Positions 3,087-48,222 of a stretch of DNA of 64,000 bases are shown here, piece by piece. The notes under the pieces were generated by a model that saw only the letters and a list, made by a program, of their open reading frames with translations, had not been told where the DNA came from and searched no databases. Position numbers and translations under genes: made by a program. Numbering within the stretch: the first letter of the stretch is position 1; every line of letters starts with the position of its first letter. Location of the stretch: the IMG/VR virus record IMGVR_UViG_3300025810_000004, positions 64,001 through 128,000 of that record; one strand, written 5' to 3'. The DNA is from a virus.

Positions 3087-6000
3087 GCGTCGCTATCAAG
3101 GGACCCGACGGGGTTTCCTACCAGGAATTGTTCTATTCCACGAATCTACAGGCTGTCTTCCTGAGCGGGAGCATACCCTCCTCCGCCGTGGAAGTGCAGG
3201 TAGACTTCAACGACTCAGGGTACAACTCCTATCAAGGTCTTGTGCGGTGGGGGGACGGAACCTGGACCTTCCCGGACCCCTCCTACGAGCCCGATGGTAT
3301 AGCGCTTTCTGTGGGAGTCAACTCCTTCAAGATCCGTGCTATCCTCCCCAATGGGTCGGTGACTCCCCCCGCCACGGCCAGTATAAGGTTCCTTGACAAT
3401 TCCGGAGCAGTGGCCAACTCCCCCACCTCCGTGTCTGTGGAGCAGAACAACAACTCTGTCTCCATCAACGTGGAACCCCCCGATGACCCCAACGGGTACC
3501 TTCGGGGCATAAACTTCTACGCCTCCACTTTTCCTGGGGGTGGGAGTTCTGGGTACTTCCGAATAAACGTCAACACGGTTTCCACTTCCAGCACCATCCA
3601 GAAGACCTCCCAGTTCGCCAATTCCCAGTTTGACGTTACGGTCAAGGCGGATGCCAACGGCAATCACGTTGCCGACCCCATGTACTTCAGGGTGGCGGGG
3701 TCACAAGAGGACTCAGACGAGGTTCTCCTTCAATCTGACTTCTCCGAGAAGTACGAAATACCAGAGTCTGCTGTTTCCATAAGGTACGTTTCTCAGCTCG
3801 AAGAGATCCGCACGGTCGAGGTCTTCAGCTTTGACCACAACCGCAGTTTCGGCCCCACCTCTGTCGTCCCAACCGTTGGCGTATCCGAATTCCGGTCTCT
3901 CTCAAACACCGAGCCTCTGTACTACGTGGCGACTGCAGTCTTCTACGACCCCATCCAGAAGCTCGAATACGAGTCTGCCTTTTCGGCTGAGGTCGTTGCC
4001 CATCCCGCGACGGTCACCCGCCTCCTCGGTTCGATAGGCACCGCTTCCAGGCAGGATATACTCCAGCAGTTCGTCACTGCCATATTCCGGAGCAACCCTC
4101 AGGTCAAGGTGGAGGTGGGGTCAGTCCTTCGCGACACGGTCATAGACCCCTTCACCTCCGAGTCTGAGAAGCTCCGGTTCATATTGGACTTCTACAACCG
4201 GGCCAGAACCCCGGCCCTTCTCCTTCAGATAGACGACCCCGACGGTTCCGGAACCAGCGTCCCCGTTTCCCAGAGCACCTACAAATCGGGACTGAAGTCC
4301 GCGTTGTACTTCGACACCGATTCCCAGGTGCAGGACCTCATAGACTCGGCTTTCGAGTCTTACGCCTCAAACTTCGGTGTCACCCGCAAGGCTGGGGTCT
4401 CGGCCAGAGGTGAAGTCACCTTCTTCACCTCCACCAGACCCCAGACCACGGTTTCCATACCTATAGGAACTCAGGTTTCCGGTGGGGGCCAGACCTTTTC
4501 CGTCACCCAGAACGTTTCCATACCCGTGGGGCAGCTGGCTTCCTATTATGACCCGGTTTCTGGGTTCTACAAGGTGAACGCCCCCATCCGGTCTGTAGAA
4601 GTCGGAACTCAGACCAACCTGGGTGCTGGTCAGATAAACAAGATCCTGTCCAACGTGGGCTCCAAAATTCGCGTCACGAATTCCGCCTCTACCTTTGGGG
4701 GTCAGGAAGGGGAGAGCAACCTTTCCCTCACCACCAGAGTGCAGAACCGACTGTCCTCTGTGGACTCAGGCACCAAGCAAGGGTACCAGCAGTCTGCTGC
4801 GAACACCCCCGGTGTCATAAAGTCAGGTGTCGTGGCGGCTGGGGACCCACTCATGCAGCGGGACCTCGACCAGACGGGGACCCATAGGGGTGGGAAGGTG
4901 GACGTTTGGGTGCAGGGAACCAACCTCACCACGGTCACCGATTCCTTCGCCTTCACGTTTGAGATCAAGTCGGACGTTCAATTCGAGGTTCTGGATACCG
5001 CCTCTTTGACGTTCAGGGCCATAGACTCCGACCTGTCCGAGTTTGACCCCATCATTGAAATGCTGGACAACTCCGTTATAGGCTATGAGTTCGTAAACGC
5101 CTCCACCGGGCAGGCTTTCGATTTGCAGGGAGTCAAGATAGTCTCCTACAACACCATAGAGTTGGACACTAGTTTGGTCCAACCGTCTGTGGACCTCACG
5201 GACGTGGTGTTGGGTTCTTATCGGAAACGCACTGGCACGGATTTCGTCTTCGTCAGACAGCCCGTCTTTGGGGTCACCTCCCTTGAAGGAGCTGTAAGCG
5301 GCGACATTCCCAGCTCGGCGTACACTCTCGTTCATCCCAATGCCCCCTTGTCTTACGGCAGGTCTATCCTGGCTGGGGACTTCTTGTCGGTGGTCGGGTA
5401 CACAGACGACAGCGGAAACTCCGTCCCCAGTGGTGACACGAATTCCGTGACGGACGAGCAGCACGTTCTGGTGGGTCAGTACCCGGAGTTTCTGGACAGC
5501 CTGGGGACCAACTTCCTCACCATAGTGGTGAAAAGCTCCGATGGCCTCACCACCTATGCTGGACCACTCGATCCGGGTGGCGCTCCCGACTACCAGATAA
5601 CCCTCGGTACCCAGACCACTGCGGTGAGCATAACCAGAACGGATTCAAGTTCCATACCGAGTGGGGCGATAGTTCTCGTATCGTACGAACACGACGAGAA
5701 TTTCACCGTGACCTACACCACCAACCTGATAGTCAAAACCACCCAGGACTCCATAGACCAGACCAAACACGCTACTGCAGATGTCCTTGTGAAGGAGGCA
5801 GTTCCCATTCCCATAGACGTGGAAGCCACCATACTTCTGTCTCCGGGCGTGGATACCGGGGTGGCTGACACCTCGCTCAGAACAAACCTCAACAACTTCT
5901 TCGGCCAGCTTCGGTTGGGGGACCCAGTAAGGCAGTCGGACATCATAAACGTCATCGAGGGAACCAGTGGCGTTTCATACGTGGTCGTTCCCCTCACAAA

Positions 6001-6538
6001 GATGGTCCGTCAGGAAGGCAGCACCGTCGTCAGGGAGCAACTGTCGACCGATACAGCTGCGGAAAGCACCCTTCTCACGGGGTTGGTGGCTTCGGCTTCT
6101 TCTGTGTTTATCCTCAACCAGGAGTTCTCCGCCGCAACCGTTGACGGCGGGGGTCAGGAAGGGGACTTCAAGGCGGTATTCCAAGACGATTTGGAGCTAG
6201 AACTTTTGCCCTCCTCCTCCACTCTTCAGTCCCTCGCTTTGGGTCCCGGTTACGCCTTCATTATTGGTGAAAAGGGTATGTCTATACCGGGATTTTCGGA
6301 TGACGCCACCCTCGAAGCTGAGGGGTATACCACCGAGTCTGCCAAATCCTCCCGCAGAAAAGAAATAACTGCCAACAGGGCTGTGGTTTCCGTCGCGGTT
6401 GGGGACTCCCCCGTCAACCACGAGTATTCGGTCACCTACATCGTGGGGAACGACACTGGCTCAAAGAACATAGACCCAGGCGGGGCCGAATTCTGTCAGG
6501 TGGGAACCCTGACCCTGACCTACGACGAGGACTCCTGA
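3083..6538 (+). CDS. baseplate J-like (gp6-like) wedge protein
   Basis: ASNFGVTRKAGVSARGEVTF, IPIGTQV, GTQTNLGAGQI, VTNSASTFGGQEGESN, GKVDVWV, LGDPVRQSDIINVIEGTSGVSYV. Confidence 0.85.
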   Translation: MSVAIKGPDGVSYQELFYSTNLQAVFLSGSIPSSAVEVQVDFNDSGYNSYQGLVRWGDGTWTFPDPSYEPDGIALSVGVNSFKIRAILPNGSVTPPATASIRFLDNSGAVANSPTSVSVEQNNNSVSINVEPPDDPNGYLRGINFYASTFPGGGSSGYFRINVNTVSTSSTIQKTSQFANSQFDVTVKADANGNHVADPMYFRVAGSQEDSDEVLLQSDFSEKYEIPESAVSIRYVSQLEEIRTVEVFSFDHNRSFGPTSVVPTVGVSEFRSLSNTEPLYYVATAVFYDPIQKLEYESAFSAEVVAHPATVTRLLGSIGTASRQDILQQFVTAIFRSNPQVKVEVGSVLRDTVIDPFTSESEKLRFILDFYNRARTPALLLQIDDPDGSGTSVPVSQSTYKSGLKSALYFDTDSQVQDLIDSAFESYASNFGVTRKAGVSARGEVTFFTSTRPQTTVSIPIGTQVSGGGQTFSVTQNVSIPVGQLASYYDPVSGFYKVNAPIRSVEVGTQTNLGAGQINKILSNVGSKIRVTNSASTFGGQEGESNLSLTTRVQNRLSSVDSGTKQGYQQSAANTPGVIKSGVVAAGDPLMQRDLDQTGTHRGGKVDVWVQGTNLTTVTDSFAFTFEIKSDVQFEVLDTASLTFRAIDSDLSEFDPIIEMLDNSVIGYEFVNASTGQAFDLQGVKIVSYNTIELDTSLVQPSVDLTDVVLGSYRKRTGTDFVFVRQPVFGVTSLEGAVSGDIPSSAYTLVHPNAPLSYGRSILAGDFLSVVGYTDDSGNSVPSGDTNSVTDEQHVLVGQYPEFLDSLGTNFLTIVVKSSDGLTTYAGPLDPGGAPDYQITLGTQTTAVSITRTDSSSIPSGAIVLVSYEHDENFTVTYTTNLIVKTTQDSIDQTKHATADVLVKEAVPIPIDVEATILLSPGVDTGVADTSLRTNLNNFFGQLRLGDPVRQSDIINVIEGTSGVSYVVVPLTKMVRQEGSTVVREQLSTDTAAESTLLTGLVASASSVFILNQEFSAATVDGGGQEGDFKAVFQDDLELELLPSSSTLQSLALGPGYAFIIGEKGMSIPGFSDDATLEAEGYTTESAKSSRRKEITANRAVVSVAVGDSPVNHEYSVTYIVGNDTGSKNIDPGGAEFCQVGTLTLTYDEDS

Positions 6539-39759: not shown

Positions 39760-41670
39760 ATGCGGCTGTCCGATATAGCGGCGAATGTGGGTCGAACTGT
39801 CTCGGACTCTGACGACGTTGTAGACCCCATCACCTATATCGAGGCTCCTTGGGGTCTGAGTCTCCGCCTTTTCCCTGTGCAGAGGGTCATAATCAAGGCC
39901 CATTATGGGATGGAGCTGGACGACAACCCCCACGATTACCCCCTCGACCAGCCCGTCCCCCCCAACCATCCCGAATACGACCCCGTTCTCATGGACGAAG
40001 ACGGGTTCTACAAGTTCAGGATAGTGGTGACAAACTTCAGGAGGAAAAACCCTCAGTTCATGACTGAAGCTGGGTACCTGAAGTTCCTCCACAGCGAGGG
40101 CAGGTGCAACATAGACAAAGTCGTTCCCGGAAAGCAACGTCGGGAAATGGTACTGAGTGTCGGAAGGCGTAGTGGCAAGACCCTGATCACGTCCTGTATC
40201 GTAGCCTACGAGACCTACAAGCTGCTACTCAAGGGCAACCCACAGAAATACTACGGGTCCTCTCAGTCCAACGTGATCCAGCTGATCTCCGTCGCAACCG
40301 ACCGGGACCAAGCGGGTCTGCTGTACCGCGAAGCCTCCGGGCACTTCCAGAAGTGCGACTTCTTCAAGCCCTATGCGGCCAACGCAACCCAGAGCTTCGC
40401 CACCTTCCAGACCCCGTTCGACATCGAGAACTACGGGTCCTACAGGGACAACCCCAAGGCCCGGTACTCGATAAACGTGACGTTCCGTTCCTGCGTTGCA
40501 AAGGGACTCCGTGGTGGTGCCAACATTCTGGTCGCTCTGGACGAGGTTGCCCACTTCGGGGAGAAGGGGCAGGCGTCAGCCGACGAGGTGTACCAAGCTG
40601 TTGAGCCGAGTACTCGTACCTTCTCCCCCAAGGACCCCAACAACCAAACCCGCCCCATAGGGGAAAACGAAGGCCGGATCATCATGATCTCGTCACCGTT
40701 GGGGCGTCAGGGCCTTTTCTACAAGCAGTACCAACTCGGATTTGGGGACAACGAGGCAGCGGACAACCTTATCTGCATTCAGGCCCCGACCTGGGAGGTC
40801 AACCCCACCGTTCCAGCCAACACCTTCGTCGCTTCCTACCTGAAAGACCCCAACGTCTTCTTCACCGAGTTCGGTGCCGTATTCAGTGACAGAACGAGGG
40901 GCTGGATAACCAGCGAGAAGGACCTCACCGACTGCATCGACCCGGATTTGCGTCCGAGGCACAGGGCACCAGCTCTTGCGCCCCACTTCATGGGAATCGA
41001 CGTCGCTCTTGCGGGTGACTATTCTGCCATAGCAATAGGTCACAACACACCTGACGGCAAGATAGTCCTGGACCTCGTTGAGAGGATAAAAGCCGGGGAG
41101 GGCGACTACGAGGGGTACGACAGGCTGGAATTCGACGACGTTGCTGACTGGATCTTCAATTTCACGAAACGGTTCTACATAGTCCACGGGGTGTTCGACC
41201 AATGGCTCGGAATCCCCATGGAGCAGGCGCTGAAGAAGCGGGGGCTCACCAACCTCGAATCCCTGTACCACTCTCGTCAGGTCAGCAGCAACATATACCA
41301 GAATTTCAAGTCCCTCATGATGGACCAGAGGCTGGTGATGTACAACTGGCCCCTGACTGACGGCGAAGACTTCGCACCCCACATACAGGAATTGCTGGAA
41401 CTGGAGCAGGAAGTCGTCAGCAAATACATCGTTAAGGTCCAGGCCCCCAACATCGAAGGCAAGCACGACGATATGTCTGATGCTATAGCCCGTATGGTGT
41501 GGTGTGCCTCTCAGGATTCTACGCAGGTCAAGAAGGTCACCGGGTCCCGCAACAGCAAAGGCAAACCTGTGCGTTCAGGTGTGGGGAACAAAACCCCGAC
41601 GTTCGGCAGGAGCGCCAAGAAGTCGGGGAGGAGCGGATTCGGGAGCCACTCCTCGCGCCAGAAACGTTAG
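39760..41670 (+). CDS. terL: terminase large subunit
   Basis: Walker A GRRSGKT, Walker B VALDEVAH, coupling ISSP, nuclease MGIDVA...HDDMSDA. Confidence 0.93.
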   Translation: MRLSDIAANVGRTVSDSDDVVDPITYIEAPWGLSLRLFPVQRVIIKAHYGMELDDNPHDYPLDQPVPPNHPEYDPVLMDEDGFYKFRIVVTNFRRKNPQFMTEAGYLKFLHSEGRCNIDKVVPGKQRREMVLSVGRRSGKTLITSCIVAYETYKLLLKGNPQKYYGSSQSNVIQLISVATDRDQAGLLYREASGHFQKCDFFKPYAANATQSFATFQTPFDIENYGSYRDNPKARYSINVTFRSCVAKGLRGGANILVALDEVAHFGEKGQASADEVYQAVEPSTRTFSPKDPNNQTRPIGENEGRIIMISSPLGRQGLFYKQYQLGFGDNEAADNLICIQAPTWEVNPTVPANTFVASYLKDPNVFFTEFGAVFSDRTRGWITSEKDLTDCIDPDLRPRHRAPALAPHFMGIDVALAGDYSAIAIGHNTPDGKIVLDLVERIKAGEGDYEGYDRLEFDDVADWIFNFTKRFYIVHGVFDQWLGIPMEQALKKRGLTNLESLYHSRQVSSNIYQNFKSLMMDQRLVMYNWPLTDGEDFAPHIQELLELEQEVVSKYIVKVQAPNIEGKHDDMSDAIARMVWCASQDSTQVKKVTGSRNSKGKPVRSGVGNKTPTFGRSAKKSGRSGFGSHSSRQKR

Positions 41671-41704
41671 CGTTATTATAAACCCCAGCGTTATTATAAA
41701 CCCC
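41669..41704. repeat. 18-bp perfect tandem duplication overlapping a promoter motif
   Basis: agcgttattataaacccc x2. Confidence 0.9.
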
Positions 41705-41722
41705 GTTAACGGAGGAACTGCC

Positions 41723-42295
41723 GTGGCGTACACCCAAAATTCGAGTATGGACGACGCTGGTGACGTGGAACTTATGTTCCCCGGTGACAGATTTCCGGTC
41801 GTCGTAGGACCCAACCTCAGGACCAGCGGTTGGAGGGGTGGCACATTCGTCCAATACGTCACGGGCGATCAGGACTTCACCGTTGAAGTGAGTGACGGCA
41901 ACCAGGCAGCTGGTTTCCTCCTCTTCCAGAGTGAAAACTATGAGCTTATCCCCCCGTATGGGAACGGTCCCGGCTCTCCCCAGAATTTCTTGGGCCAGCA
42001 GAACCGCAGCCCCGTGGGAGGCAACAACGTTATGACCGTGGTGGAAGGAGGGGTCCGTGCCTTCTTCAAGGTCTTTGAGACGGTCGCTCTGGACGGGGCC
42101 GGGGACAGGGTCGGGGGGTCCATAACCTACACCCTCAACGAAGACCTGAAAATCAGCGAGAACGGACTCCTCTGCAACGACTCGGACGCCAACCTCGCCG
42201 CAGCTGGGGTTTCGAGTCCACAGGTTGTAGGTATAGTGTCCGCGATACCCTCTTCTTCCAACAACAACCGACTCTGCATAGACCTCAAGTATTAG
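41723..42295 (+). CDS. putative head-associated structural protein
   Basis: GTG after GGAGG; lies between terL and portal. Confidence 0.6.
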   Translation: MAYTQNSSMDDAGDVELMFPGDRFPVVVGPNLRTSGWRGGTFVQYVTGDQDFTVEVSDGNQAAGFLLFQSENYELIPPYGNGPGSPQNFLGQQNRSPVGGNNVMTVVEGGVRAFFKVFETVALDGAGDRVGGSITYTLNEDLKISENGLLCNDSDANLAAAGVSSPQVVGIVSAIPSSSNNNRLCIDLKY

Positions 42296-42304
42296 GACCG
42301 GGAA

Positions 42305-42604
42305 TTGGACAAAAAGGCGCGAGAGATAGAGAACCTCAACTCCCGGATAAAAGAACTGGCTCGTACGGCTTCTTCCAATCTGGAGGAAGCTCTGCGTATT
42401 GTCCGAAATTCCCCGGCTTCCAGGTTGGAAAAGAGGATAGCCCAGAGAAGGCTGGCAGAGGCTCTCGATGCGCTCCAGGGAGTGAAGGGCATAGTGACCA
42501 CACCCGAAAGGGAGACACACGAGGAGTGGAAGGAGAGGCGTGAAGAGCGAAAGAAGAGACGTTCTGAGCGGCTCAAAGGCATGAAGGAGCAGGCTGATGT
42601 CTGA
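42305..42604 (+). CDS. hypothetical protein
   Basis: Charged helical ORF overlapping the portal start. Confidence 0.55.
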   Translation: MDKKAREIENLNSRIKELARTASSNLEEALRIVRNSPASRLEKRIAQRRLAEALDALQGVKGIVTTPERETHEEWKERREERKKRRSERLKGMKEQADV

Positions 42605-44303
42605 CAACAACGAGGGCAAGTCCGTCAAGAAGGTCAGAAACGGCGACGGCAAGAAGAAGGCCAAGACCGGGAAGCCCCGCAAAGTCACCGCTTCCATGAT
42701 GCGAACCAGGACCGCCTCGTACGGTGGTATGAGCGCCGGGAACGGCGGGTCAGTAGAGGGGGCGGGGGGCAACTTCTACTCCCCGGAACTCAGCACGGAC
42801 TTTCTGGAGCTTCCTCAGTCTCTCCACGAGCAGTGGAATTACTACAGGTTCTTCTACAACTCCGAGCCGTTCGTCGGTCAGGCTGTGGACCTCCACACGG
42901 AGTTGCCAATCAGCAAGGTCCGGATCGGTATGGCCCACGCCAAGAACCGGGACATAGCTGTTGCCGCAACCAAGTTCTGTGAGAGGTGGGCGAAGAATAT
43001 CAAGCTCCTCGACAGGCTGATCTCCATCACACACGACCGGAACCTCATAGGTGAGGTCAACATATGGTGTGAAGACGCCAACCCGGATATGCCCAGGGAC
43101 ATACGCCAGCAGCTCCAGCGCACTCTGCTCGAATCCGGAGAAGCGGAAGAAAAGTGGGTGGACAGAGAGGACGCCGACGAGAGGGCCGTTGCTTGGCTCA
43201 AGAAGAACTACAAGGGGTGGACCAGCATCCGGGTTCTTCCTCCAGAGCAGGTCAAGATGGAGTCGTTCAACTTCACGGACGAACGCATATTCGAGCTTAT
43301 CCCCGACTCCAAGACTCGGGACATCATAGACAAATACCAGCAGGGGGACCCCAACGCGAAGCGTATCGTGGAGTCCATGCCACCTGAGGTGGTCAAAGCC
43401 GTCGTTGAGGGCGGGAACATCCCGCTCAACACGGACCCGATGGCTGGGTCTTTCATCTACTATCTGGCAAACAAGAAGTCAGACTATGAGCCCCGTGGCC
43501 GTTCCATCCTTGAGAGGTGTATGAGGGCGCTCGTATACCGGGACAAGCTGCGTCAGGCACAGACCAGCATCGCCTCCCGCCACATGACCCCGATCCGTGT
43601 CGTGTTCGGTGAGGATATGGACGTGGCAGACGTGGAGGCTCTGCGAGAGCAGGTGGACAACGCGCTGCAGGACCCGGATTACAGCATCATCGCGAACTTC
43701 CAGATCAACTGGGAGGAAATGGGTGCAGACCAGAGACTGTTGGACCTGAGTGGTGAATACGACCTCACCGACCGGCAGTTGTACTCTGGTCTGGGAGTCA
43801 CAGAAGGGTTGCTGTCTGGGGAGTCCAGCTATTCGGGCGACCGGATCAATCTGGAAGTTATCAACACTCGGTATATGCTCCTCCGGGAGCAGCTTCAGGA
43901 CTTGGTGGAGACCCAGTTCTTCAAGCCCATGTGCGCACGTATGGGCTTCGTAGAGGAGGACGACGACGGTGAAGAATACGTCGTCGTACCGACCCTGTCG
44001 TTCACCCGGCTTGCACTCCGTGACAATCGAGACACCTTCGACGCTCTATACAATCTGTATACAAAGGGTTCACTGGATGTGGACACCATTCTGGAGCTTC
44101 TCAACCTCGACCCCATAGCTGTCAGAGAGAGAATCGAGCGTGACCTGTTCACGGTCAATGACCCGACCTTCAACGAGGTTCTGCGAGGAGTCTACGGAGA
44201 TACTGGCCGAGCGATTGCGGAGAACTCGAACGCAGCCGAGAAGATCGCGGAAGTGCTGGGGCTGAAGATGAACCCACCGGAAGAAGATGGCGGCAGATAC
44301 TAA
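42597..44303 (+). CDS. portal protein
   Basis: 568 aa after terL; RFFY..EPFVGQAVDLHTELP, VLPPEQV, YEPRGRSIL.R, L..GLGV..GLLSGE. Confidence 0.8.
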   Translation: MSDNNEGKSVKKVRNGDGKKKAKTGKPRKVTASMMRTRTASYGGMSAGNGGSVEGAGGNFYSPELSTDFLELPQSLHEQWNYYRFFYNSEPFVGQAVDLHTELPISKVRIGMAHAKNRDIAVAATKFCERWAKNIKLLDRLISITHDRNLIGEVNIWCEDANPDMPRDIRQQLQRTLLESGEAEEKWVDREDADERAVAWLKKNYKGWTSIRVLPPEQVKMESFNFTDERIFELIPDSKTRDIIDKYQQGDPNAKRIVESMPPEVVKAVVEGGNIPLNTDPMAGSFIYYLANKKSDYEPRGRSILERCMRALVYRDKLRQAQTSIASRHMTPIRVVFGEDMDVADVEALREQVDNALQDPDYSIIANFQINWEEMGADQRLLDLSGEYDLTDRQLYSGLGVTEGLLSGESSYSGDRINLEVINTRYMLLREQLQDLVETQFFKPMCARMGFVEEDDDGEEYVVVPTLSFTRLALRDNRDTFDALYNLYTKGSLDVDTILELLNLDPIAVRERIERDLFTVNDPTFNEVLRGVYGDTGRAIAENSNAAEKIAEVLGLKMNPPEEDGGRY

Positions 44304-44567: not shown

Positions 44568-45029
44568 ATGGCAGTTGAAATCTGGAAAGCCAACGAAGAT
44601 ATCCACAAGCAGATGATGGCTCTGGTTGCCACCAATCATCCCGACTTAGCTCTATGCGTGGACGAGATCGTGATCGTCTTCCGCGAGAAGGCGGGAAAGG
44701 CTGGTGGTCAGGTCGTCCTCGGCAACTCCAAGAAGGTTGCGGCCATCGCCAATGCCATCGGGAACACCGACTATAAGTTCGTGCTCGAAATTGCCGCAGA
44801 CCAGTGGGAGAACGAACTGACCTCCCGACAGAAGGAAGCCCTTCTGGACCACCTCCTCTGTGCCTGCAGGGTGGACGAGGACCCCAAGTCTGGGAACATC
44901 AAGTACACCGTGGCGAAGCCCGACATCGCCGCGTACTCCGACAACGTGGAGCGGTACGGAATGTGGTTCCCGCGAGAGGAATCGGAAGCTGGGGAAGATG
45001 TGGCAGATTTGCTGCCTTCCGCGCAGTAG
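44568..45029 (+). CDS. phage metallopeptidase-like protein (degenerate HExxH)
   Basis: FVLEIAADQW..L...QKEALLDHLLCAC..KPDI..VERYG. Confidence 0.65.
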   Translation: MAVEIWKANEDIHKQMMALVATNHPDLALCVDEIVIVFREKAGKAGGQVVLGNSKKVAAIANAIGNTDYKFVLEIAADQWENELTSRQKEALLDHLLCACRVDEDPKSGNIKYTVAKPDIAAYSDNVERYGMWFPREESEAGEDVADLLPSAQ

Positions 45030-45035
45030 GCCCCC

Positions 45036-45716
45036 ATGGCATTCGACACGAAGTACAGGCCCAAGACCTACAAAGAGGTCTTGGGTCAGGACACCACTGT
45101 GTCCATACTCAAGAAATACGTTTCAGAAGGCAAGGGGTTCCACCAATCTTATGTCTTCTGCGGCCAGCACGGTTCGGGCAAGACCACTCTTGCCCGAATT
45201 CTGGCCCGTGCCCTTCTGTGTCACCAGCCCGTAGAAGGTGCTCCCTGTGACGAGTGCAACTCCTGCCTGTCCTTGCTGAATGGACAGGGGCATGAGTGCT
45301 TCGAAGAACTGGACGCCGCCACGAAGTCTGGGAAGGACGACCTCGCTCGGATTATCGAGGACGCCAACTACAGCACGTTGAGCGGTTCCCGGCGCGTCTA
45401 CGTTATAGACGAGTGTTTCACTGAGGACACCGTTCTACTGACCCGTGACGGGTTCCGGTCCATTCGAGACATAGTGGATTCCAAATTCGTTGGGGAGGTT
45501 CTGTCTTTCGATCCTGACACCGGTAGGGAAATTTGGAAGCCCATAACGGATTGGTTTGACCTCGGTGAACGCGAGGTCATTACTCTGGAATTCGATAACG
45601 GGGTCGAGATCACTGTCACCCTCGGTCAGGAGCTTTACACCTCCAACCGTGGCTGGGTGAAAGTAGAAGATCTGACAGACCAGGACGACGTGGTGGAATC
45701 TTCGTGGGGTCAATAA
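45036..45716 (+). CDS. dnaX: DNA polymerase III gamma/tau N-extein + N-intein
   Basis: KYRPKTY..V.GQ, GQHGSGKTT, PCDECNSC, ELDAA, VYVIDE then CFTEDT...HINT blocks, stop TAA. Confidence 0.92.
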   Translation: MAFDTKYRPKTYKEVLGQDTTVSILKKYVSEGKGFHQSYVFCGQHGSGKTTLARILARALLCHQPVEGAPCDECNSCLSLLNGQGHECFEELDAATKSGKDDLARIIEDANYSTLSGSRRVYVIDECFTEDTVLLTRDGFRSIRDIVDSKFVGEVLSFDPDTGREIWKPITDWFDLGEREVITLEFDNGVEITVTLGQELYTSNRGWVKVEDLTDQDDVVESSWGQ

Positions 45717-45720
45717 GTCT

Positions 45721-46020
45721 TTAGCTCTTGCTTATTGGTTCATGGATGACGGATCAATTGGTAGGAGGACCAAAAGTGGTGCACTGTTGAGTGCCTGTAT
45801 ACACACTTGTGGATTCGGGATTCCAGAGAACGAATTATTGGTAACATTCCTGAAAGAGAGATTCGGGTTGGAACCGATTTTAGCATTTTCCAAAGGTTAT
45901 CCTTACCTAAGGTTCAATGTAAAAAGCGCGCGAGCATTGGGGGAAATAATTACCCCATATTTGCACCCTTCTATGGCTTACAAAGGAAACTGCTTTGGCT
46001 CGACTGACGAACAAATCTGA
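45721..46020 (+). pseudogene. LAGLIDADG homing-endonuclease remnant (single domain)
   Basis: LALAYWFMDDGS...GF...E..LL..L.ERFGL...I.PYLHPSMAYK; AT-richer; out of frame with both intein halves. Confidence 0.8.
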
Positions 46021-47122
46021 ACCTTTTCGCGCTCCAGTATATGATGTGACCGTGGAGGGGACACATTCTTTTTTTGCTGGTTCAGGCCCCACCCCCAACA
46101 GAGGTGTGCTGGTCCACAACTGCCACCGACTCTCCAAGAACGCACTGGACGTCCTGCTCAAGCCCATGGAGGACAATGTTCCTGGGTCTGAGAACAAGAG
46201 GCTCGTCATTCTGTTCTGCACCACGGAACCAGACAAGATGGTCGGGACCGTGTTCTCCAGATGCGCACCTGCTTTCACCATCAGACCCACATCGTTTGAG
46301 GAGATCTCGGATAGGTTGGCCTCCATCTGTGTGCTGGAGGGTATCAAATACGAGCCGACTGCCCTTCTGACCTTGGCTGAGATCAGCAAGAGTCACATCC
46401 GCGATGCCTTGAAGACCCTGGAGGGGGTCTCGGTCGTCAGCAACAGGGTCGTGGACGACAAGGCAGTCAGCTCGTATTTCAAATTCGATACCAACGAAGT
46501 CATCCTGAGTCTGTTGAAGGAGATACTCCTGGACAACAAACCAGAATGCTTCGAGTTGGCCGAGTCCGTGTCCCGTGACCTTGGCCCAAAGGTTTCGTAC
46601 GAGAGGCTTTCGGAAGCCTCGATGCTGGCCTATAGGTCGAGTCTGGGAATTCCGCCGAAGCGGACGTCTTGGGATCTCCAGAAACTCAGGGAGATCGGCG
46701 TGAACCACCAACAGGCTCTGTTGGAGGTCGCCAAGCACTTCGCCGCACCTCCAAACAGGTCTTCTGGTTCTTCCTTTGTATTGGACTGCGTGGGTTTCAC
46801 CCCCCACGTCAATACTGCCCCGACACCTCGAAGAGACACCAGCGAAAATAAGGGAGAAAAGGGGGAAGACAAGACCCCCGAAAAACTGGTAGACTACGAG
46901 AAGAGCAAGCAGGTGTCCCACCCTTCTGTTAATTCAGGTGGGGTGTATATCGAGCCCAAAGCAGTCAAGAAAATCGAAGATGGGGCAGGCGGGTATGATA
47001 CCCTGACTGTTCCGGTCGTCAAGACTAAGTCTTTAGACAGAGCTACGTTTATTAAGCTGCTGCAGGTGCACCTCGGAGGGGTCAACATAAATGCCAAAAG
47101 GGGAGTCTTGGATAGTTCTTGA
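45995..47122 (+). CDS. dnaX: C-intein + DnaX C-extein
   Basis: VYDVTVEGTHSFFA...LVHN then CHRLSKNALDVLLKPMED, ILFCTTE, SRC, HIRDAL; AAGGA upstream of TTG. Confidence 0.9.
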   Translation: MARLTNKSEPFRAPVYDVTVEGTHSFFAGSGPTPNRGVLVHNCHRLSKNALDVLLKPMEDNVPGSENKRLVILFCTTEPDKMVGTVFSRCAPAFTIRPTSFEEISDRLASICVLEGIKYEPTALLTLAEISKSHIRDALKTLEGVSVVSNRVVDDKAVSSYFKFDTNEVILSLLKEILLDNKPECFELAESVSRDLGPKVSYERLSEASMLAYRSSLGIPPKRTSWDLQKLREIGVNHQQALLEVAKHFAAPPNRSSGSSFVLDCVGFTPHVNTAPTPRRDTSENKGEKGEDKTPEKLVDYEKSKQVSHPSVNSGGVYIEPKAVKKIEDGAGGYDTLTVPVVKTKSLDRATFIKLLQVHLGGVNINAKRGVLDSS

Positions 47123-47612
47123 ACTTTCTTTCCAAGGGGAAAGATTAGCCTCTTACGGCTCGCTTCTGGAATTTCTGTGCTCCATAGCTCACCTTGAAGA
47201 CGAAGAAGAAGACCTCATATTCATACCCTATGCGGTGTTGAATTCCAAGAATTCCAAACACGTCCTGAACGTCATGGAAGGGTACTGCTTCGTCCACGAG
47301 TCCATCCCCGAAGACGCTCTGGCAACCCTCATAAATAGCGAGTACATATCCGGAACAGTTTCCCAGGGCAGAAACACCTATGGCACCGTTGACGGCCAAG
47401 CCATAGCCGGAATAAAGAACAAACTGGGGGAAATGGTATCCTCCAAACTTGAGAAGGGACAGCCAGTCAGAGTCATTGGAGGTCCCTTCAAAGGTATAGT
47501 CGGGGTAATACAGATAAAGGGCTCCACCAGCTCTTGTGTGCACTTCTCTTTCAGGTCCATGGAGACCATGAGGGTCGTGTTCAACTACCTATTGGAGCCC
47601 TACGATGCCTAG
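47091..47612 (+). CDS. NusG-like transcription factor (NGN + KOW)
   Basis: W.VL, IFIP, MEGYCFV, KGQPVRVIGGPFKGIVG. Confidence 0.8.
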   Translation: MPKGESWIVLELSFQGERLASYGSLLEFLCSIAHLEDEEEDLIFIPYAVLNSKNSKHVLNVMEGYCFVHESIPEDALATLINSEYISGTVSQGRNTYGTVDGQAIAGIKNKLGEMVSSKLEKGQPVRVIGGPFKGIVGVIQIKGSTSSCVHFSFRSMETMRVVFNYLLEPYDA

Positions 47613-48222
47613 CAACTGGTATTCCCACGTCTTCATGGACCCCTCCGACATAGAGAAATTCTTCTCCTCCGACAGGGGGCTGCACGAGATATATGGGGAG
47701 ACCCCGGAAGACAAAGAAGAAGTCAACAACGAGCAGCTATCCCAAATCAGAAAAGTGCTGCACAGAATCCCCCCGAGGGAAGCCGACTTCGTGGAGTTGT
47801 ACTACTTCCACGAGGTGAAGCAGGCAGCGATAGCTGAGCTGTTTGGTGTCAGCCAGCCCACCATCTGCTACAGACTCCAGAGGGCTTCCAAGAGAATCAA
47901 GTACCTCATAGAGCTTCCAGAATACGAAGAAAAGAAACTGGCCAAATTCCTGAACATGGTCCTGTCCGACCCAGTGGACATAGAGATCATGAGGCTGATG
48001 CTATTGACCACCTGCCAGAGCGAAGTCGCAAGGTCCCTCAATGCCTCGCAGGGCTTCGTCAGGCACAGATTCTACAGGTCCCTGAAGAAGATCAAGGACT
48101 ATCCGGGTGCAGAATCCAAACTGTACCAGAAGGTGTTCACGCACCTATCCCAGAACCTGAACGTTCTGAAGAGTGACGACAAGCTCAAGAAGACCGAGCC
48201 CATGGTGTTCGTCCTGGGGTGA
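47605..48222 (+). CDS. sigma-70 region-4-like double-HTH protein
   Basis: IPPREADFVELYYF..KQAAIAELFGVSQPTI..RL.RA; second QSEVARSLNASQGFV. Confidence 0.75.
   Translation: MPSNWYSHVFMDPSDIEKFFSSDRGLHEIYGETPEDKEEVNNEQLSQIRKVLHRIPPREADFVELYYFHEVKQAAIAELFGVSQPTICYRLQRASKRIKYLIELPEYEEKKLAKFLNMVLSDPVDIEIMRLMLLTTCQSEVARSLNASQGFVRHRFYRSLKKIKDYPGAESKLYQKVFTHLSQNLNVLKSDDKLKKTEPMVFVLG

Follow-up and report, generated by a model that had tools for sequence, protein, structure and literature searches.

Only a few naturally split inteins are known, and protein ligation technology relies mainly on them. In the cyanobacterial DnaE split inteins (Ssp, Npu), the N-terminal part (IntN) has ~100 residues and the C-terminal part (IntC) ~36–42 residues, and the genes for the two parts lie at distant genomic positions and are not accompanied by an endonuclease. 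No unsplit intein is known from that DnaE site (PMC4760082). Further examples are the "fractured genes" described by Dassa, London, Stoddard, and Pietrokovski in 2009, among them gp41-1, gp41-8, NrdJ-1, NrdA-2, IMPDH-1, and others (PMC2677866). For the gamma subunit of DNA polymerase III (Pol III), inteins were reported by Novikova et al. in 2016 from Cyanobacteria only, in cellular genomes and at one site directly after the Walker B motif (PMC4760082). Here, we analyzed a window of 64,000 nucleotides from a very large uncultured phage (IMG/VR record IMGVR_UViG_3300025810_000004, record positions 64,001 to 128,000), in which positions 45036–47122 hold an interrupted dnaX gene. Judged from its sequence, this locus is a predicted fractured dnaX, with a class-1 type mini-intein that follows the Walker B Asp-Glu and is naturally split. 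The two halves are likely to splice in trans into a clamp-loader subunit of 459 residues. We infer splicing itself from purifying selection in the split state and from the retained catalytic residues.

The locus was compared with the described systems. Like the fractured genes, it is a replication or repair enzyme gene broken by a split intein, its C-half has a translation start of its own, and it originates from environmental phage-like DNA (PMC2677866). In the fractured genes, the halves enclose a free-standing homing-endonuclease gene of the same orientation; in the dnaX family such a gene is intact in the relatives L007 and L108–L110, and a remnant is left in the window, which in this respect resembles the fractured-gene locus gp41-7, where the endonuclease is also lacking (PMC2677866). 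However, dnaX is outside the eight enzyme types of the fractured genes, and the endonuclease is an I-SceI-type LAGLIDADG enzyme with a Cys-rich N-terminal region instead of a GIY-YIG or Vsr-like one. The genes overlap, whereas a spacer of 27–51 nucleotides separates N-half and endonuclease gene in the fractured genes (PMC2677866). Further differences are a Gln in block B, the coexistence of near-identical contiguous alleles, and the reduction of the window endonuclease to a remnant. What is new here is the dnaX host gene, the endonuclease class, the non-canonical block B, and the occurrence of whole and split alleles with identical intein sequence; the fractured-gene layout was already known.

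With the cyanobacterial DnaX inteins (Ssp DnaX and the Spl DnaX mini-intein) the window shares insertion point a, here VIDE/C...HN/CHRL (PMC4760082), and the class-1 type residues Cys1, His-Asn, and Cys+1. The Spl DnaX mini-intein from Spirulina (PDB 7cfv) was the best sequence match among solved structures (E = 4e-8), a weak homology with an identity of ~26%, and unlike the window family it has the normal block B His. The cyanobacterial DnaE split inteins are likewise naturally split, reside in a subunit of the Pol III holoenzyme, and have an acidic IntN. In contrast to DnaE, the halves in the window family are adjacent and co-oriented, and whole, split, and endonuclease-bearing alleles coexist. 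A 2026 bioRxiv preprint announces in its title an out-of-frame homing endonuclease in a cyanobacterial dnaX intein; the terms "split intein" and "trans-splicing" occur zero times in that preprint. An earlier note on this DNA, made from the letters alone, had placed cis inteins at the DE/C site of cyanobacterial DnaX, in agreement with Novikova et al. (PMC4760082), and knew of no characterized naturally split DnaX intein. No paper describing one was found in the literature searched, which omits most subscription journals. The note had also located the break of dnaX at the Walker B DE/C, the N-intein with its TAA stop, the endonuclease remnant, the AAGGA and TTG, and the C-intein; each was recovered in the same place, exact to the base (Table 1).

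Residues 18–126 of the N-extein matched the Pfam family DNA_pol3_delta2 (E = 5.9e-16), and it was 60–74% identical to the N-terminal ends of phage DnaX proteins that lack an interruption. The C-extein matched AAA_lid_RFC1, DNAX_ATPase_lid, and DNA_pol3_delta2 (positions 103–154) and was collinear with uninterrupted relatives, e.g. L028. Uninterrupted relatives have 449–503 residues, compared with 459 in the predicted spliced protein. The net charge is −14 for IntN and +1 for IntC. N-half, endonuclease remnant, and C-half are encoded in three different frames, all on the plus strand. A contiguous (cis) intein that suffered assembly or sequencing indels, or that is read via programmed frameshifting, would have its counterpart in the closely related contiguous mini-intein alleles described below. 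However, the N-half protein recurred without any change on at least 20 contigs, which stem from many samples and different assemblers, and ten independent contigs from JGI, ENA, and Logan assemblies (L044–L053) differed from the 2,087 bases of window 45036–47122 by 0–2 substitutions and by no indel. Indel errors, named in the earlier note as a possible cause of the split, were excluded by these contigs, and an assembly error was ruled out. In addition, a continuous product would require two frame changes and read-through of the half-endonuclease. Programmed frameshifting was ruled out because in the relatives the frame offsets and the lengths between the halves differ, whereas the IntN stop, the Shine-Dalgarno-like site, and the IntC start are always kept. 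The probability that remains for such a cis intein is negligible.

The catalytic residues were assessed in an alignment of the window N-half with those of 10 other clusters (11 sequences) and in an alignment of four split C-halves. Cys1, which follows VIDE, was invariant in all 11 N-halves. The Tyr-Asp and the His of block F (VYDVTVEGTHSFFA), the terminal His-Asn, and Cys+1 were kept in all four C-halves and in the aligned cis members. Block B read TxxQ (TLGQ in the window) in 28/28 dnaX-borne members examined, whole or split, with TxxH in none of them; the motif was TxxH in all 22 more distant intein homologues of the same alignment. Many inteins cannot do without the block B His, and the natural subset that lacks it is very small (PMC6333167). 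The orthologues of the Tko CDC21-1 intein are a small natural group of this kind, for which compensation via another residue is presumed (PMC6333167); they share the absence of the His with the window family but are archaeal, contiguous, and located in an unrelated host protein. The Gln is a variant feature and does not exclude membership in the intein class. Whole TxxQ alleles yield a working ATPase only if they splice, so that the Gln most likely permits splicing. With Gln in place of His, the N-terminal scissile bond must be activated somewhat differently than in standard inteins. In P0024 and P0028 (52% identical), two N-intein relatives of fragmentary sequence, block B is the canonical TxxH; they form a clade that is starred on the N-intein tree. 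On sequence grounds, they could mark the transition from His to Gln.

Among 24 related IMG/VR phage loci, 22 had an uninterrupted dnaX with no intein. The +1 residue of these intein-less alleles was Ser in 16 (DE/SH), Ala in five (DE/AH), and Cys in one (DE/CH, L030), whereas every intein-bearing allele had Cys. Database searches yielded 10 clusters of N-halves (216–236 residues), all ending at the same intein position, and five clusters of C-halves (367–385 residues), all starting at the same intein position; further clusters of both kinds were present among the 50% representatives. Contiguous alleles of 578–675 residues were also obtained (P0011–P0015, P0017–P0020, and P0023), with a mini-intein of ~146–153 residues. 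In P0016 and P0029, whose Walker B intein is split, the P-loop is interrupted by another intein, which is contiguous and of LAGLIDADG type (GK/C...HN/T), and in P0021 (1087 residues) the P-loop LAGLIDADG-type intein and the Walker B intein are both contiguous.

These alleles and the retained residues bear on the possibility that the intein halves no longer splice and instead form a tight non-covalent module that holds both DnaX fragments together. Such a module would agree with a block B devoid of the His that activates the first acyl shift, and high-affinity pairing would be in keeping with the strongly acidic IntN. A precedent exists in phage Aeh1, whose NrdA is fragmented by an endonuclease and is reported to be assembled via interaction domains (PMC3045599). 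However, association alone would not preserve Cys1, the Asp and His of block F, the terminal His-Asn, and Cys+1, which were kept wherever the position was aligned. The uniform +1 Cys of the intein-bearing alleles, against Ser or Ala in 21 of the 22 intein-less ones, also speaks against it. The contiguous TxxQ alleles interrupt the AAA+ core within single open reading frames (ORFs), and their intein must be excised for a working ATPase; a HINT domain of 140 residues that separates sensor 1 from Walker B would probably be incompatible with an intact ATPase site. We consider non-splicing halves unlikely and retain trans-splicing as the preferred reading.

The endonuclease remnant matched Pfam LAGLIDADG_2 (E = 2.2e-10) over profile positions 102–167 of 168 only, which is the second half of the domain. 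L007 (72% identical) has the same split with an intact gene for a 417-residue endonuclease (L007 4666–5919) between the halves, overlapping both. This protein consists of a Cys-rich N-terminal region and a complete LAGLIDADG_2 domain (E = 1.1e-26), and among solved structures it is closest to 6x1j, an intron-encoded endonuclease, and to I-SceI. The window remnant corresponds to residues 322–412 of the L007 enzyme (~91 of 417 residues) with 47% identity in BLASTP. The first LAGLIDADG half-domain is missing, so that only one of the two motifs of an active monomeric I-SceI-type enzyme is present, and the window copy is a pseudogene fragment. More distant fractured dnaX genes with an intact endonuclease (42% identical) were found in L108–L110, on contigs of 87–497 kb. 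In P0022, the whole endonuclease is fused in frame to IntN, giving a protein of 531 residues (N-extein-IntN-endonuclease) that stops at the usual ..SSMAYK.. tail; with its C-half presumably separate, it stands midway from a bifunctional intein to a fractured gene. No fully in-frame IntN-endonuclease-IntC protein was found among the longer proteins. Decay of a canonical bifunctional intein was not supported as an origin, since the endonuclease belongs to the LAGLIDADG_2 family of I-SceI and intron-encoded or free-standing enzymes, with a Cys-rich N-terminal extension, and not to the intein-type LAGLIDADG_3. A scan of a genome collection with the endonuclease returned only distant LAGLIDADG relatives (23–37% identity) in diverse bacterial metagenome-assembled genomes, with no cyanobacterial dnaX locus and no clue to the host.

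Several stages of endonuclease loss were represented among the split relatives. L031 and L170 have the same internal deletion, after which the Cys-rich start and the tail of the endonuclease remain in a gap of 174–181 nucleotides. L034 retains the endonuclease tail only, and its halves overlap by 13 nucleotides. In L172 the endonuclease is wholly lost, with a gap of 29 nucleotides. Across the split loci the distance between the halves was −13, 29, 181, 278, and 1210 nucleotides, yet IntN is followed by a stop in every split form, and the position at which IntC starts, with M-A-R-L, is constant. The last endonuclease codons of the window, L007, L031, and L034 contain a tACAAGG-like ribosome-binding site; in the latter three the tACAAGG stands 5–9 nucleotides 5' of the ATG or GTG start of the C-half. 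The comparison with related phages upheld the split arrangement proposed in the earlier note, as the stop and the C-intein start keep their positions at varying distance. The LAGLIDADG remnant that the note had seen between the halves was substantiated by the Pfam match and by the intact L007 gene. While its split-intein reading stood, the note contained neither the contiguous relatives nor the loss of the block B His.

Nonsynonymous (dN) and synonymous (dS) substitutions were estimated by the NG86 method. For L031 and L170, which share the same endonuclease deletion, the N-intein had a dN of 0.084 and a dS of 1.15 (ratio 0.07), and the endonuclease remnant was 75% identical with frame-breaking indels. 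The low ratio of the N-intein in split relatives that share a deletion argues that trans-splicing is needed. For the window against L007, L040, and L043, the pairs with estimable dS, the dN/dS of the intein was 0.1 or below. Intein dN was lower than extein dN in the comparisons of the window with its relatives, and IntC had a dN of 0.14–0.18 against close relatives, with dS saturated. These values bear on whether dnaX is dying or dead, with an intein broken by endonuclease decay and fragments that are still present. The endonuclease piece is clearly a pseudogene fragment, and in an incomplete genome record a functional substitute could exist. However, the two extein ORFs and the two halves of the intein are all intact, and the allele was matched in at least 10 samples. 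The split is kept across lineages separated by more than one synonymous substitution per site, at a dN/dS of ~0.07–0.1 where estimable. Several independent endonuclease deletions each preserved the positions of the stop, the Shine-Dalgarno-like site, and the start. A dead gene is thus very unlikely.

Whole and split alleles are closely interwoven. On an N-intein tree built on 98 columns, the two forms interleave, with nine changes under parsimony, of which at least six are forced by well supported branches. The contiguous P0011 is sister to the window intein (support 100/97), and the N-inteins of the contiguous P0014 and P0015 are identical to that of the split P0003. The direction of change, i.e. 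gain or loss of the endonuclease, does not resolve on this tree. The whole allele L040 equals the split L007 minus ~1.2 kb; the junction falls within a GGG(GG) run, and the GTG at which the C-half starts in L007 codes for an internal Val in L040. DNA identity between L007 and L040 was 95–100% in the N part of the intein, 85–92% in the C part and the next 150 nucleotides, and 60–75% in the flanks. The island of high identity (L007 positions 4375–4680 and 5898–6190) covers only the intein and ~150 nucleotides of downstream extein, and dS was 0.08 in the N-intein as opposed to 1.7 in the N-extein. In terms of sequence divergence, this pattern is the signature of recent lateral transfer, i.e. homing, and the island has the appearance of a recent event of this kind in which co-conversion extended to one side only.

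A structural model was built with AlphaFold2 for L043, the closest contiguous allele, whose IntN and IntC are 79 and 74% identical to the window halves; it is a model of this single contiguous chain. On an alignment of 41 rows, the mean predicted local distance difference test (pLDDT) was 93.9 and the predicted template modeling score (pTM) 0.88, whereas prediction of the cis intein from a single sequence gave a pLDDT of 39. TM-scores were 0.87–0.92 with the Mtu RecA mini-intein, 0.87 with the NrdJ-1 split-intein fusion, and 0.82–0.86 with NpuDnaE, and the model also superposed on Ssp DnaE and Spl DnaX. The window family is only ~17–28% identical to the solved inteins compared with the model. 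The predicted fold of the close cis relative L043 is a HINT fold. In model numbering, the N-half runs up to position 99 and the C-half begins at 105, in a loop (98–104) between strands 92–97 and 103–111; in the model, the break is in the canonical endonuclease-insertion loop. This position is also the split site of Npu DnaE. In sequence matches to solved structures (7qil, 2keq, and 4kl5), the break aligns with the N/C junction region of the fused DnaE intein.

On this basis, the following course is proposed. The split lineage would have carried a free-standing I-SceI-type LAGLIDADG gene between the intein halves; either a whole mini-intein was split by the endonuclease gene, or loss of this gene by deletion gave rise to whole mini-inteins. 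In the window phage, the 5' three-quarters of the endonuclease gene (~320 codons) are deleted, leaving an inactive half and the ribosome-binding site of the C-half. Both halves would be co-transcribed and translated separately. No terminator-like or sigma-70 promoter-like site was found on the plus strand between the halves, so that co-transcription is likely. The very acidic IntN and IntC would then associate into the HINT fold and splice in trans via Cys1, Cys+1, and the terminal Asn, and the product would be DnaX with the junction ..VIDE-CHRL...

Several points weigh against trans-splicing. The Gln replaces the block B His, and splicing could be slow, conditional, or absent. In most pairs dS is saturated, so the dN/dS values are rough. 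The C-half starts with TTG, and public gene calls differ: some use the TTG at 45995 (375 residues), others a GTG at 46046, 17 codons downstream (358 residues). The shorter call removes 17 conserved residues of the C-intein and probably has the wrong start. Finally, the source record (158,946 bp) is estimated to be ~36% complete, and a second, whole dnaX could lie elsewhere in the genome. Within the record, in turn, the only other clamp-loader-like match was a delta-prime-like protein without a P-loop, which points to a need for the joined DnaX.

The delta-prime-like subunit has 227 residues with an SRC-type motif and is encoded outside the window, at record positions ~41,600–43,300 (L038 1327–3002). 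An overlapping ORF of 398 residues 3' of its gene could encode a delta subunit. Going by these genes, the phage may encode its own full clamp loader. The gene order around dnaX (metallopeptidase-like gene, dnaX, a gene for ~175 residues, and a sigma-70 region-4 gene) was the same in all relatives examined, with the intein absent, whole, or split. A search of an annotated phage collection with blastn in distant mode gave one irrelevant match of 123 nucleotides only.

Table 1. Positions of the dnaX locus and its neighboring genes in the window
Feature	Position	Strand	Remarks
N-half ORF	45036–45716	+	N-extein, N-intein, and TAA stop
DnaX-like clamp-loader N-extein, 126 residues	45036–45413	+	Walker A GQHGSGKTT; C-terminal end is Walker B VYVIDE
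N-intein (IntN), 100 residues	45414–45713; TAA at 45714–45716	+	Starts CFTEDT, ends DLTDQDDVVESSWGQ (..DDVVESSWGQ)
Block B, T69-L-G-Q72	45618–45629	+	From alignments of N-halves and intein homologues
LAGLIDADG endonuclease remnant	45718–46020	+	Open frame, ..LAYWFMDDGS.. to ..SMAYKG..; TGA stop overlaps C-half start
Shine-Dalgarno-like AAGGA	45983–45987	+	7 nucleotides 5' of C-half TTG; within last codons of endonuclease remnant
C-half ORF, 375 residues from TTG	45995–47122	+	C-intein and C-extein
C-intein (IntC), 42 residues including TTG-encoded Met	45995–46120	+	Block F VYDVTVEGTHSFFA, block G VLVHN
DnaX C-extein, 333 residues	46121–47122 (stop 47120–47122)	+	From +1 Cys, CHRLSK; sensor 1 and SRC region, AAA+ lid, C-terminal domain
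Phage metallopeptidase-like gene (PF18894)	44568–45029		Directly before dnaX
Small gene, ~175 residues	47091–47612		Directly after dnaX
Sigma-70 region-4 protein gene	47605–48222		After the ~175-residue gene

With this locus, the small number of naturally split inteins is extended to a new host gene, that of a clamp loader. The I-SceI-type LAGLIDADG enzyme is a new kind of intervening endonuclease compared with the GIY-YIG and Vsr-like enzymes of the fractured genes, and the catalytic block is non-canonical, with Gln for His in block B. One family displays the empty site, the whole mini-intein, the split intein with endonuclease, and the split intein with decaying endonuclease, which makes the origin of split inteins and their reversion directly testable. 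The window represents the stage after the endonuclease, in which the phage would still depend on trans-splicing after the selfish gene has died. We lean slightly toward the view that the phage DnaX intein family acts as a natural "toggle", in which the same sequence, with its block B Gln, splices in cis or in trans, and only the presence or absence of an I-SceI-type endonuclease gene, or of its remains, in the insertion loop decides between the two. If so, the family would document the origin and the reversal of split inteins in living populations and would point to a novel mode of N-terminal scissile bond activation. It would also provide a new trans-splicing pair, a candidate for use beside the existing ones.

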